Source of the DNA: a bacterium
GTDB lineage: Bacteria > SAR324 > NAC60-12
Direction: 5' to 3'
Length of the DNA stretch: 64,000 nucleotides
Assembly: GCA_965205865.1 (NCBI GenBank)
Contig: CBDBHR010000025.1
Location: forward strand, 128,001-192,000
The position numbers were made by a program, and so were the translations under genes. The notes beneath the pieces are model-generated. The model was not told the DNA's origin. It saw nothing but the letters and a program-made list of their open reading frames with translations, and did no database searches. The stretch's first letter is position 1, and each line of letters opens with the position of its first letter. Below are positions 16,685-23,240 of the stretch, piece after piece.

Positions 16685-17006
16685 TACTCTATTTTGGCTA
16701 ACAAGTCGTTAACTCGTTTCTGTATAATTTGATATTCTGAAAACCGCTTGACAAGCCATAGGGCGATGCAGTCCAATTTTCTAACTGGATAATATCACAG
16801 AATGATTAGTTATACAGAAAAATGGATCATGTTCATGATAAAGGTCCCTTCTCAAATGACACGCTTATTAGAAACGGTTTCAGATCAGATACTTCCTCTG
16901 CTTCCGCTCGTTCCATAAAGGGGGTGGCATACTCCATCATGGCTTGAGAGATAGAAATGGGGCGAAATCCATCCGGCAGCCGTTTTTTCCCCTAACCGCC
17001 CCCTGG

Positions 17007-17147
17007 ACTCAAACAGGTCGCGGCCAGAGCAACCCCTAAGGAAATCCGCGCTCCATGGATCAGGCGGCTCAATAAGTCCCGCCCGACGTGGTCGATCCCG
17101 AGGATATACTGGGCCGAGGCCTCCTGCATCCGGTCTCTCAAGTGGAT
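17007..17147 (-). pseudogene. DppC-family permease fragment
   Basis: Manual translation IHLRDRMQEASAQYILGIDHVGRDLLSRLIHGARISLGVALAATCLS. Confidence 0.75.
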
Positions 17148-18239: not shown

Positions 18240-20300
18240 CTACTTCAGATCCTGATCAATCCAGAGGCGGGTGAGAACCTGTGTATACTCCTCTGTCAGG
18301 TGCCATTCACCGTTCCAGCCTTTGACCCACGGATTGGCCGCTTGAAACGCTGTCTGTAACGGGCCCCAGACCTGAAACTGATTGCGTATCAAGAACATAT
18401 CGTACAATTTAGAGAACCTCTGCCGTTGCTCAATGGTGGCCGCGGCATAGTAGCCCTCATACGCGGCGTCCAACTCCGGTTCGGGAAGTCCGCCGGCCTG
18501 CTCTCGCTGAAACACGGAGGTATGCCGATAATAACTAAACGCGTATTTAGGAGCTGAGCCCAGTTGTCCGCTGGACATCTCGTACGTATGGTCTCCTCTA
18601 CCAGCGACCCACGTAGGCGTATCAACTGCATTGATCTCTACATCAACACCAATCGCATCCCAGTAGCCTACAGCTATTTCTACATAGCCCAGATCGTAAA
18701 GGTCGCGGAACTGCAGGGTGGTCTTAAATCGAACGCCGTCCGCACCACGCGGATATCCAGCCGCATCGAGCAACGCTTCTGCCCCTTTCGGGTCATAGGT
18801 GTAGGTTTTCTTGACCTCTTCGGGCCACTCGTCAAACGGCACATAATATCCCTTCACAGCAACGCCGACGAGTCCCTGGGGTTTCCACATTGCCCAACCG
18901 CTATAATAGGTCTCGTTGATCGTTTCCAGGTCCAGTGCCATCTGCATGGCCTGGCGTACCCCGATGTCGTCAAAGGGCGGGTTACGCCTGTTCAGATTAA
19001 TACTGTTATTGGAAAAGAGGGGGACAGGGTGTATCTGGAGCTCGGGGTTGGTCTTCTGGAGGCTCTTTACCACGTCGACGGATTGTATCCAAGCGAAGCC
19101 GCACAGTAGATCAATCTTGCCCGAGCGAAGTGCCGCCAGGCGTGTTGCTTTTTCCTTTATGAACAGGCTCTTGAGCTCGTCGACATAAGGCAAGCGGTTC
19201 TCCGGGTATTTTTCGTCGTGGCCCCAGTAGTCAGGTATCTTGGTGTGGGTTATGGAAACGCCTTCGCTCCAGTCAGTCAGCATGAACGGCCCGGTGCCGA
19301 CCATGTTTCGCCAATCCTTGTAGTCGCCATGTTTTTCGATTACCTCAGGGGGTAGTATCCAAGCGTTGAGATCGCTAAGGGAACTAGTTAGCGCATCGAG
19401 GGATGGCCGCTCCAGCTTGAAAACAACCGTATGTTTGTCGGTGGCCGTGATCGATTCGACTGGCAGGCTGGCCATCGTGTATTTCCAGTCTGAAGTTTCG
19501 AACTCGCCGAAACCCGCAGCACGCTGAAGGCTATACACGACGTCATCGGCGGTGAGCTCGCGACCGGACATCGGTGGCTTGTCGTGTCAGCGCACGCCGC
19601 GGCGGATGTGGAAGATGATCGTTGTGGCGTCAGGAGTTTCCCAGCTTTCTGCCAGATTACCTCTTAGGGCAGATGCATCGGGGACCACACTCTTGTAGTC
19701 AGATATGTCCCTATCCAGTACCCAGTCCGAGATGCCGAGCTTCTCATTAACGGGACCTATGAGATGTCGGATAGTGTGGCCCGAATAGAACGGGTCAGTA
19801 TTCTCAACGAGATTGGGATGAACAACGGTCAGAGTCCCGCCATACTCGGGCGCGGTCACCATTTTGCCAGTGCTGGGGTCCGTCACCATCTTTTTATCAG
19901 CCGCGACGGCTGCCGGGCTGACCCAGAAGGCGACCACCATCAGGGTGAGCAACAAGGATTGCATTTTTGCAGCAGACCAGAAGCCTGCAGGGTTCAGCCC
20001 CACGACGGAGGCGACAAGTTTATTTACAATACTCATAATAACCTCGTTTAATTGAGGGTGGCGAGAACGATTCACCCACCATGGGGCGAATCCGATTTTC
20101 GCGGCAGACACGACGTCTGCCACGATCAGCCCCACGACGGGGGCGAAAAGTTTCTTCAAATACAAATGGACTCCTTTACAAGAAATTGAAAATAATTCAC
20201 CCCACCATGGAGCGAATCGGTTTTTTGCGGCAGACAAGGCGCCTGCCACGGTCAGCCCCACGATGGAGGCAACGATTTTCTTCATAATAATTTTTTTCAT
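18240..20300 (-). pseudogene. Family 5 substrate-binding protein split by one in-frame TGA (19587-19589)
   Basis: ORFs 19587-20300 and 18240-19571 are in frame: HIRRGVR*HDKPPMSGRELTADDV. Motifs APEYGGTL, LAESWETPD, GTGPF, RLPYVD. Confidence 0.88.
19963..20285 (-). repeat. Three ~120-bp tandem leader repeats, structured, in frame with the binding-protein gene
   Basis: Core GCCyCCrTCGTGGGGCTGA...GCAGrC-N5-GTCTGCyGC occurs three times. Peptides KIVASIVGL..SAAK, KLFAPVVGL..SAAK, KLVASVVGL..SAAK. Confidence 0.85.
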
Positions 20301-20640
20301 TTTATCCTCATTGATTTAAAATTAGAAAAAACAAATCCAAACAATCTGCAGAAAAATGCAATAACAATTAATGATTGGGAAAAATAGGCGAATCGTTTCC
20401 GCTTTATGTTGATCTCCTGATGAAAAAATGAACGAAAAAAGGACAGGGATCCATGATTTTCCAAATTCCCCCTTGCCCTTCTTTTCCCGGAATTTGGAAC
20501 TTGGAATTTAGAACTTGGAACAAGGAATCTCAAGGATCTCTCCCTGAGGTCGAGATAACATAAGAGGGTAGAACCCAATGAACCTGTACAGTTGGGCCTT
20601 GGGCCTTGGGACTTGAAATTCGGGCCTTAGAACCTAATAC

Positions 20641-20908
20641 TTGGGACTTGGGACTTGGGACTTGGGACTTGGGACTTGGGACTTGGGACTTGGGACTTGG
20701 GACTTGGGACTTGGGACTTGGGACTTGGGACTTGGGACTTGGGACTTGGGACTTGGGACTTGGGGGACTTGGGACTTGGGACTTGGGACTTGGGACTTGG
20801 GACTTGGGACTTGGGACTTGGGACTTGGGACTTGGGACTTGGGACTTGGGACTTGGGACTTGGGACTTGGGACTTGGGACTTGGGACTTGGGACTTGGGA
20901 CTTGGGAC
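20641..20908. repeat. Heptanucleotide tandem array (TTGGGAC)n
   Basis: 17 units, one TTGGGGGAC variant, then 20 units. Degenerate TTGGAAC/TTGGGCC units at 20494-20521 and 20592-20640. Confidence 0.97.
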
Positions 20909-21083
20909 TTACTTGGGAATTAATTTTACTCGCATATCAACCTCTTTTCAAGATTTTTTTAAATTTGACTACTCACCTGATTGCCCTTCGCTTCTTGGGA
21001 ATAGATATTTAGAAGCTATTTGGATAAAAAATTGCATTTCTTCTAATTTTCATTTTTTTTAAAAAGAGATTCAGAGACTATCT

Positions 21084-21397
21084 TGGAAAAAATTAACATT
21101 GAATCTTTCTCAGGTCAAACACTTTTTGTTGCAATCGATGCCCATAAGAAGAGATTTGCCTCAATTCCACGGACTTTCATGATTTTGCCTGCTCTTTTTT
21201 AAAACCCCGTAAACCAATGTCAACACTTTTTTTCAGTGATTCATATGGTCAACGCATGAAACAGACAGTTTGCGAGGGCTTGATAAAAATGAAGATTCAC
21301 AAACAAACAACCCTTACGCAGGAGAATGTTATGGAAAAATTAACACTGAATCTTTCTCAGGTCAAACACTTTTTGTTGCAATTGATGCGCATAAGAA
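21084..21397 (+). pseudogene. Two direct-repeat stubs of an IS110-like recombinase N-terminus
   Basis: 21084-21150 and 21332-21397 are ~66-bp near-identical repeats reading EKINIESFSGQTLFVAIDAHKK, like the first DEDD motif (yvgiDvHK). The second has GGAG + ATG. Confidence 0.55.
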
Positions 21398-21617
21398 ACC
21401 GTTTGGTTAAATAATTCATTATAAAGCAAAATGAATTTTGTTCTTGAAAATGCGGTGGGGGGAGGGTAAGATGCGTGAATTGATGCAGTGCTCCAATCCT
21501 GGAGCGACTGACTCAGTTTTTTGTTCATTGCCCAATCCTGGAGCCAATGGATCGGTATTTTTATATTGTAATAATCGTGAATATTGCTTATTTTAAATCC
21601 TTATATCAAAGGTTCAA

Positions 21618-23240
21618 ATGAAAATAAACACCAAAACGAAGTCGTTAGCCAAGGTCCAAACCCACCTCGTTGCCGAGTGCTTCAATAAGCTCTTCATCGG
21701 CGGACAGTTCGTTGACCCCATCGACGGCGAGAAGTTTCCAACGTACTACCCTGCAACAGGCGATTTTTTGCACGAGTTCCCGAGGGGCAAAGCCAACGAT
21801 GTCGAGGCCGCCATTGCGGCGGCTGAGGTTGCCTGGGCAGAGGGTAAGTGGGCGGGCATGGCCGCTGCCAAGCGTGCGGAGATTGTTGCCAAGATGGCGC
21901 AAGGTATTGAGGACAACGTCGAGATGCTCGCCGAGATTGAGGCCGCGGATGTCGGCAAGCCCTTCCGCCAAGCGGCTATGGCGCTCGGTGGTGCCGCTGG
22001 CGAGGGCAAGTACTGGTGCTCGCTCGGTGCGGCGCTGGATGCGGAGCAGGACACGCCTGTCAATTCCGGTGGCGGTGAGGGTGGAGTGCCGCCCGCAGAG
22101 TGGGATGTGGTCTACAGACGAGATCCCATCGGCGTCATCGGCCTGATTTCCGCCTGGAATTATCCTATGAATGTGGCATTTCGCAAAGTTGCGCCAGCCT
22201 TGGTCGCCGGCAACTGTGCCATCCTGAAGCCCTCCGAAATTGCGGGTCTCTCCTGCATGTTCATCGGCAAACTAGCGCAAGACGCCGGCATCCCTGCCGG
22301 TGTCTTCAGTGTCGTCACCGGCGATCGTGACGCGGGCGCTGCTCTGGCATCCGCTCCCACTGTCTCCATGATCTCTTTCACAGGCTCGTCATTGACGGGT
22401 AGCAAGATTATGGAGGCCTGCGCCTCGAAGCTGTCTCAGTGCGCCCTTGAGTTAGGGGGCAAATCGGCGTTGGTGGTGTTTGACGACACGGATCTCGATC
22501 AAGCTGTCGAGACTACAATGAAGGGATTCCTCACTAACGGCGGGCAGATCTGCACCGCACACACGCGTCTCGTGGTCCAGGATGGCCTCAAGGCTCCTCT
22601 ATTGGACAAACTGAAGGAGGAACTCGAGAAGCTTCCATTCTGCAATGACCCGATCACGGAAAAAGATCGTGGTGACAGGGCCTGGGAGGCGGGAATGACC
22701 GACGTGGTCCAGCCTGTGGTCTGCGATTCGCAACACAAGAAGATTCTGGGATTCCTTGATGCAGCCAAGGCTGAGGGTGTCGAGGTTCTAACTGGTGGCA
22801 GCGTTCCGGATGCCGAAGCTGTTGGAAATGCGGGAGGATATTTCATACAGCCCACGGTGCTGCTCAACGTGGCACGCGATGCGGACGTGTGGCAAAAGGA
22901 GGTCTTTGGTCCCGTTCTCTCAGTCCGCTCGTTCTCGACTGAGCAAGAGGCCGTGCTCGAGGCGAACTCTACAGCTTTTGGGCTGGCATCGACGGTCATG
23001 TCCTCGGACCCGGCCAAGGCAATGCGGGTCGCCAACCACATCCGCGCGGGCGCCGTCTACGCCACCTCAACGGGTGAAGGCATATTGGCAGAGCACCCGG
23101 CAGTGTCGCGTGGCGGTTTTGGTTGCTCTGGTGTTGGTCGGGAGCTTGGAATTGGTGGCTTACACGAATACACGGAGCTGAAAAGCGTCAACTACACGGG
23201 ATTTTCGCTTGCCGATGCCAAGAAGCAGCGCACCGGGTAG
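21618..23240 (+). CDS. Aldehyde dehydrogenase, ALDH10/betaine- or amino-aldehyde dehydrogenase-like
   Basis: WNYP, LKPSE, SFTGS, LELGGKS, NGGQICTA (catalytic Cys), EVFGPVL, SGVGRELG. Confidence 0.92.
   Translation: MKINTKTKSLAKVQTHLVAECFNKLFIGGQFVDPIDGEKFPTYYPATGDFLHEFPRGKANDVEAAIAAAEVAWAEGKWAGMAAAKRAEIVAKMAQGIEDNVEMLAEIEAADVGKPFRQAAMALGGAAGEGKYWCSLGAALDAEQDTPVNSGGGEGGVPPAEWDVVYRRDPIGVIGLISAWNYPMNVAFRKVAPALVAGNCAILKPSEIAGLSCMFIGKLAQDAGIPAGVFSVVTGDRDAGAALASAPTVSMISFTGSSLTGSKIMEACASKLSQCALELGGKSALVVFDDTDLDQAVETTMKGFLTNGGQICTAHTRLVVQDGLKAPLLDKLKEELEKLPFCNDPITEKDRGDRAWEAGMTDVVQPVVCDSQHKKILGFLDAAKAEGVEVLTGGSVPDAEAVGNAGGYFIQPTVLLNVARDADVWQKEVFGPVLSVRSFSTEQEAVLEANSTAFGLASTVMSSDPAKAMRVANHIRAGAVYATSTGEGILAEHPAVSRGGFGCSGVGRELGIGGLHEYTELKSVNYTGFSLADAKKQRTG

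Follow-up and report, generated by a model that had tools for sequence, protein, structure and literature searches.

Tandem in-frame hairpin modules in the 5' leaders of solute-binding protein genes of a SAR324 bacterium

The window analysed here is a 64,000-nucleotide (nt) stretch of DNA from a bacterium of the SAR324 lineage NAC60-12 (contig CBDBHR010000025.1 of assembly GCA_965205865.1, positions 128,001 to 192,000, forward strand). On its minus strand, a gene for a family-5 solute-binding protein (SBP) is preceded by three tandem units of a hairpin-bearing element, referred to below as the module. A repeat search of the window identified a direct repeat with three copies of 84 nt on the minus strand, at positions 20201-20284, 20075-20158 and 19943-20026. 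The copies are spaced 126 and 132 nt apart, the outer two share 83% and 63% identity with the middle one, and the core pattern occurs three times in the window, where 0.15 occurrences would be expected by chance. All three units lie within a single open frame, 20300..19587 on the minus strand, that continues into the SBP, confirming an earlier note on this DNA that had described three tandem units in frame with the binding protein. The components of the locus are as follows, where SD is the Shine-Dalgarno sequence and H1, H2 and H3 are the hairpins of a unit.

20178..20310, minus strand: unit 1, a full module, with SD GAGG at 20309-20306, ATG at 20300 and a second in-frame ATG at 20285.
20270-20255 (H1), 20249-20227 (H2) and 20218-20194 (H3), minus strand: hairpins of unit 1, followed by AUUUUCAAUU.
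20046..20177, minus strand: unit 2, a full module, with SD AAAGGAG at 20177-20171 and an in-frame TTG at 20165.
20144-20129 (H1), 20124-20100 (H2) and 20092-20069 (H3), minus strand: hairpins of unit 2.
19965..20045, minus strand: unit 3, the terminal partial module, with SD GAGG at 20045-20042 and ATG at 20036.
20012-19997 (H1) and 19990-19970 (H2, with one U-U mismatch), minus strand: hairpins of unit 3, which has no H3.
19899..19964, minus strand: classical signal-peptide core MQSLLLTLMVVAFWVSPAAVAA, directly after unit 3, with a putative cleavage site.
18240..19898, minus strand: mature part of the family-5 SBP (Pfam PF00496), interrupted by an in-frame TGA at 19589-19587.

Each unit follows its own SD and start codon, as the earlier note had read them. 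The start of unit 2 is TTG, with ATG found at the same place in sister copies, and the end of unit 2 carries an anti-SD, CCUC at 20057-20054, opposite the SD of unit 3. Unit 1 is matched by both an nhmmer profile and a covariance model (C25:148186-148290), and unit 2 is a covariance-model match of 120 bits (C25:148061-148164). Unit 3 retains H1, the left arm in the earlier description, together with the inner hairpin H2; it lacks the right arm and runs into the signal peptide, also as described. Most likely, unit 3 is the real 5' coding end of the gene, where it would encode a pre-signal extension, MSIVNKLVASVVGLNPAGFWSAAK. The downstream gene is a member of SBP_bac_5 (PF00496), with an E-value of 3.8e-69 and a score of 234 bits against a cut-off of 32.4 when the TGA is read as tryptophan.

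The module, which is about 105 bases long, is not confined to this locus. Scanning the window's genome with the nhmmer profile yields 102 copies, of which 56 span 85 or more model positions and 46 are partial; they are grouped at about 60 places. Most commonly, a full unit is followed by a partial one with H1 and H2 only, and this in turn by an SBP frame of 600-700 residues. The genome holds 162 SBP_bac_5-like loci, and a search upstream of these paralogues, as the earlier note had proposed, places units at 56 of them. Almost all of the copies (96 of 102) are on the sense strand of the gene and within 900 nt upstream of an SBP match. Copies are found on both DNA strands of the same contigs, and their orientation is therefore set by the gene rather than by the replichore.

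The covariance model, built from 42 full units, yields 88 matches in the window's genome and 53 in one sister genome of the genus, and none in 43 further family genomes. At the DNA level, 40 relatives were searched, and only the sister genome and one 30-nt match at chance level came up. Likewise, a degenerate pattern matched a single record among species representatives, the sister genome, and also matches two metagenome contigs. A cmscan of window positions 19500-21200 against Rfam 15 at E<=10 gave four chance-level matches (17-19 bits, with gathering thresholds of 48-70), none of them fitting, and literature searches, judged from titles and abstract openings, found no description of an in-frame tandem arrangement of this kind. 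The suggestion of an undescribed, tandem, structured element tied to an expanded transporter family is thus upheld: the module is neither a dispersed repeat unrelated to transporter genes nor a recognisable Rfam family.

Conservation of the fold was assessed in an alignment of 42 of the 53 long matches (39 of them distinct), which left out eight units with large inserts and three insert-bearing partial units. Over these 42 full units the three local hairpins, H1 of 5 bp, H2 of 10 bp and H3 of 9 bp, are 91.8% paired, and 26 cells are changed on both sides of a pair, as compared to 10.5 after shuffling; none of 500 shuffles was as high on either measure. A further 33 units, taken from the sister genome and the two metagenome contigs, are 92.6% paired (again 0 of 500 shuffles as high), with double changes at 13 pairs versus 5.7 in shuffles, although the H3 counts of this set lean towards structure because the alignment was fitted to the model and because the partial units have no true H3. 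Within the stems, G·U cells outnumber A·C cells by 248 to 40, or about 6:1, which assigns the fold to the sense strand, in the simplest case the mRNA. Pairing of H1 and H2 is 91.8% and 94.3% in full units and 94.4% and 87.0% in terminal units. Upstream units thus pair as well as terminal ones and show no visible decay.

The earlier note had drawn units 1 and 2 as an outer stem enclosing an inner hairpin. This nested arrangement does correspond to the minimum free energy (MFE) fold of both units (-44 and -50.6 kcal/mol, z-scores of -3.4 and -3.55; unit 3, with a z-score of -1.1, does not take this shape), and to that extent the drawing stands. As a conserved fold, however, the outer stem was rejected: it is 83.3% paired over the alignment, 467 of 500 shuffles are equal or better, and covariation favours the local hairpins. 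That the outer stem pairs at all is due to H1 and H3 being similar palindromes.

One alternative reading turns on the peptide rather than the RNA. In it, the encoded K-K-hydrophobic-SAAK would be a functional N-terminal peptide, either a membrane anchor or a region akin to the extended signal peptide region (ESPR) of autotransporters that alters SBP targeting, and the tandem copies would be peptide repeats. The ESPR (PF13018) is an extended charged and hydrophobic segment that precedes a classical signal peptide. The module likewise adds a segment of this kind on the N-terminal side of the signal peptide, in the order charged, hydrophobic, turn, charged, a layout that resembles the ESPR, and its frame is open and kept. 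The substitutions in the module argue otherwise. Column variability is 0.79, 0.57 and 0.67 bits at codon positions 1, 2 and 3 (model positions 9-68), with no third-position excess and no codon-position signature of amino-acid constraint, so that variation by codon position alone, one outcome that would have spoken against a structured RNA, is not what is seen; paired columns are less variable than unpaired columns. Within H1, TCC/CCC (Ser/Pro) codons switch jointly with AGG/GGG (Arg/Gly) codons, and these radical replacements retain the pair, which places the constraint on the RNA and not on the peptide. In addition, the hydrophobic run of terminal units is only about 8 residues, two translated leaders scanned against Pfam at E<=1 had only chance matches below threshold, and the carrier, unlike that of the ESPR, is an SBP with tandem units. 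We regard a functional peptide as very unlikely.

The reading frame is conserved in spite of the freedom in amino-acid sequence. Units are in frame with the SBP in 76 of 90 cases, and in 72 of the 90 the frame is also free of stops up to the SBP. Unit-to-unit spacings are divisible by three in 34 of 39 cases and fall into six length classes (126, 129, 132, 135, 138 and 177 nt), whereas the five spacings that are not divisible by three are rare lengths. Derived stop codons occur at 14.4 per 1000 opportunities in the SBP frame, as compared to 24.9 and 31.4 in the other two frames.

Signals for translation initiation are similarly retained. Under a strict rule, 38 of 52 full units and 36 of 43 partial units have both an SD and an in-frame start, with SD sequence variants that differ among unit subtypes. 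A/U-rich sequence fills roughly the first eight codons (24 nt) that follow the AUG, and H1 starts outside the footprint expected of the ribosome. Of 50 internal junctions, 43 have a 4-nt anti-SD at a distance of 3-10 nt ahead of the SD, against a mean of 15.6 and a maximum of 24 in shuffled sequences; the pairs are mostly CCUC opposite GAGG, with UCUU opposite AAGG in another subtype. Many paralogues have CTG or ACG as the codon preceding QSLLL, from which we infer that translation there must start at the AUG of the partial unit and that the partial unit is coding. The kept frame, together with an SD and start for each unit, fits the stacked alternative N-termini that the earlier note had offered as one possibility.

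The overlap of start signals and hairpins raises the possibility of translation-coupled transcription attenuation, whereby H3 and a following U tract would terminate transcription unless H3 is blocked, either by a ribosome in the leader frame or by H1, whose 3' strand could pair with the 5' strand of H3 (the outer stem); tandem units would then be serial checkpoints. Leader-peptide attenuators are known in a trp type and a pyrBI type, and in the latter the leader frame passes through the terminator. The module resembles them in having an open frame with SD and AUG over hairpins that have two pairing options, the SD and start of each unit overlapping the hairpins, and in that a subset of modules has a hairpin and U tract immediately ahead of the structural gene. 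With its 9 bp, H3 reaches about -13 kcal/mol, and the outer stem that would act as antiterminator is the MFE fold and 78% pairable. Among 53 H3 copies, 14 are followed by at least six T in 10 nt, 13 by five, and 26 by four or fewer. The strongest tails, TTTTTATTTT, are found some 30 nt ahead of a different SBP start, of canonical form, and H3 of unit 1 in the window, with its tail, also scores as terminator-like.

Yet about half of the H3 copies have the T-poor tails just mentioned, the terminal unit has no H3, and the antiterminator pairing is without covariation. Moreover, the leader frame has no stop before the gene but reads into the SBP, no run of regulatory codons is seen in the aligned leader rows, and tandem iteration is a further difference from known attenuators. 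Attenuation is unlikely as an account of the module at large, and it stays alive for a subset on the strength of the best H3 tails and the terminator-like H3 of unit 1.

The leaders do not follow the genes to which they are attached. A tree was built from 97 SBP bodies trimmed of their first 30 residues. Leader type needs 25 changes on it, as compared to 32.4 with shuffled labels, and at least 18 of the changes are forced by well-supported branches. Two near-identical paralogues, for instance, carry unlike leaders, and homology between them begins within the signal-peptide core. Of 14 loci examined in the sister genome, eight have a counterpart in the window's genome with at least 93% body identity: the module is present only in the sister genome in four of these pairs, the architecture differs in two and is the same in two, and orthologues that are 96-98% identical bear different leaders. 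In nucleotide alignments of three pairs, the breakpoints fall either within the signal-peptide core or where H1 starts. Read together, the tree and the junctions show leaders that have been exchanged by recombination and that do not track SBP phylogeny. A comparable arrangement is found in the Erp/OspE-F/Elp lipoprotein paralogues of Borrelia, where an upstream homology box and a shared leader peptide are swapped by recombination. The likeness is in the exchange of a conserved 5' flank and signal-peptide coding region among otherwise diverged paralogues. The difference is that several alternative cassettes circulate here among about 160 paralogues, the one studied being a tandem hairpin module with covariation.

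Such rapid turnover might also be expected of selfish or neutral repeats, that is, recombination-prone or transposase-mobilised DNA of the REP/BIME (repetitive extragenic palindrome/bacterial interspersed mosaic element), BOX or Correia type, carried along passively in the 5' cassettes of a very large set of paralogues. The copies would be tolerated only where the frame is kept, and the hairpins would serve their own propagation or the copies would simply be young. Confinement to one genus, the very fast turnover between orthologues, and leaders that are mosaics of several module types all agree with this account. So does a second, GC-rich hairpin repeat that has landed in some units, where it forms part of an in-frame insert of 24 or 45 nt. 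This repeat, with a 32-nt core, has 63 matches in the genome, 47 of them away from units, and is present in one orthologue and not in the other; an example (G000 C25:27207-27259) reaches -24.5 kcal/mol within a folded 53-nt stretch. The genome also has 15 matches to the Y1-transposase family PF01797, with five 335-residue frames within 23 kb at C29:722638-745882.

REP/BIME elements of enterobacteria are GC-rich hairpins in about 100 copies, often in tandem mosaics, that classically lie in ATP-binding cassette (ABC) importer operons beside binding-protein genes and affect mRNA stability. Their positions are outside genes, for the most part 3' or intercistronic, their orientation can be either, and a further hallmark is a cognate Y1 transposase (RAYT) that the repeats flank. 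BOX elements of Streptococcus pneumoniae and Correia/NEMIS elements of Neisseria are modular hairpin repeats near gene starts that are co-transcribed and able to alter expression. The module shares with the former its roughly 100 GC-rich hairpin copies in tandem mosaics beside binding-protein genes, and with the latter its hairpin repeats of variable number near gene starts. In contrast to REP/BIME, it is placed at the 5' end, nearly always in the sense orientation and mostly in an open frame with the gene, and it carries an SD, a start and three different hairpins. BOX and Correia elements, for their part, are scattered among many kinds of gene, in either orientation, and are not translated as part of the gene's frame.

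Several observations weigh against repeats of no consequence to the gene. Nearly all copies (96 of 102) share the sense orientation and sit 5' to members of a single gene family, even when these genes are on both strands of the same contig; the excess of G·U over A·C follows the strand of the gene; SD, start and anti-SD are conserved though their sequences differ; and upstream copies are paired as well as terminal ones. In addition, homology stops at module boundaries in three junction alignments, in which target-site duplications were not searched for. Selfish or neutral repeats therefore appear a rather unlikely explanation.

The explanation that we favour, and to which we would give about an even chance, is that the module is a structured, modular 5' leader and pre-signal cassette that acts in cis on the mRNA and is iterated and exchanged by recombination. 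The module would work somewhat like REP/BIME, BOX and leader-peptide attenuators, yet it lacks defining features of each. Each module has the anatomy of a translation-initiation region, composed of an SD (with internal ones opposite a 4-bp anti-SD), an AUG and about eight A/U-rich, unstructured codons. The conserved sense-strand hairpins H1 and H2 come next, to which upstream copies add H3 and a linker. The terminal partial module would be where the pre-protein truly begins, adding a disposable stretch N-terminal to the classical signal peptide. The upstream full modules are tandem duplicates, in frame and stop-free, such that ribosomes entering there would read into the SBP and leave the SBP start unblocked. 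Hairpins would act in cis, to gate translation at masked internal SDs, to stabilise the 5' end, or both. Modules would be iterated by unequal recombination, and gene conversion would exchange them among paralogues and orthologues, with one breakpoint in the conserved signal-peptide core.

The sequences themselves establish the anatomy of the module, its distribution and covariation, the kept frame and the swapping of cassettes. On this cis-acting leader model, ribosomes would use the upstream starts, and the hairpins and masked SDs would tune translation or mRNA stability. Use of the upstream starts would explain why frame and openness are kept.

A number of points count against this model. 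All copies are kin within two genomes, and the shuffle controls for that reason overstate significance; frame retention, too, may be partly inherited among kin. Stop depletion in the SBP frame is only about two-fold. In a pre-protein begun at the first unit, as many as about 115 residues, with several hydrophobic stretches among them, would precede the signal peptide, which seems awkward for export. The very fast turnover of leaders is, as discussed, also compatible with selfish or neutral repeats. Eight RNA runs hold only 6-10% of the sampled words, and no statement on expression or habitat rests on them. Lastly, the operon in the window is probably dead, as judged from the TGA in the SBP and a second permease (16990-17141) shortened to about 49 residues. 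Its leader copy would thus be part of a decayed, dying operon, and the triple leader may have escaped selection.

If the module acts on mRNA, it would represent a cis-regulatory RNA that is partly inside coding sequence, tandem and in frame, and common to more than 50 genes of one transporter family. Orthologues of 96-98% identity bear wholly different promoter-leader-presequence cassettes, and the control of expression of the nutrient-uptake repertoire therefore evolves much faster than the proteins. For annotation, the practical consequence is that gene callers will assign these SBPs long false or alternative N-termini. A more elaborate and rather doubtful proposal is that the modules form a plug-in expression system for about 160 SBP genes, with swappable cassettes of in-frame start modules. 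In the hairpin type, with H1-H3 and masked SDs, output would be set by upstream ribosome traffic or by a dedicated RNA-binding factor. Recombination at the signal-peptide core would reshuffle copy number and cassette type, and so retune nutrient scavenging in each strain or cell lineage.

SBP paralogues without the module have other upstream modules, labelled B and C (with the remainder grouped as 'other'), that are in frame and each end in an SD and ATG. Across 102 genes, the median length of open SBP frame ahead of the mature N-terminus is 90 codons, as compared to 40 and 12 in the other frames. Among the leader types only the hairpin type is strongly structured: its median folding z-score is -3.07, with 32 of 45 leaders below -2, while the other types have medians of -1.44, -0.58 and -0.29. 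Other leader families that are tandem and in frame include NLVFNQKAERSTMNRQKSR..., KGEIM..NQNQ..GGIMEKSKTR and KSLFNSIVFGKEIIMKKIK, and some leaders combine types in one frame of 738 residues.

As for the remaining features of the window locus, a permease gene (PF00528) is next after the SBP. Recoding of the interrupting TGA as tryptophan was considered and ruled out: 86 of 97 paralogues have tryptophan at this column under translation table 11, hence TGG, and only the window gene has a stop there. In-frame stops are also present in five other paralogues of the 97. Synteny of the window locus with the sister genome was not found, the only match being the adjoining dehydrogenase (84%). Two further features lie upstream of the leader.

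20592..20910, no strand given: array of a 7-nt repeat, 38.6 copies.
20951-20923, minus strand: promoter-like site, TTGAAA-17-TAAAAT, beyond the 7-nt array, which separates it from the leader.

The 7-nt array may be a slippage-prone spacer. Period-7 arrays of at least five copies are found at 34 places in the genome, 28 of which are within 1200 nt upstream of SBP genes, and the window array is the longest. Intergenic stretches at 20453-20583 and 21523-21627 (about 100-130 nt) have many matches in the sister genome beside SBP operons, at 71-91% identity, and are further dispersed modules of SBP upstream regions. Close relatives of the SBP (44-59% identity) are encoded at loci L027-L062, in metagenome-assembled genomes labelled Dehalococcoidia, Spirochaetia, Acidobacteriota and Deltaproteobacteria, which suggests that the SBP family is common to several phyla.

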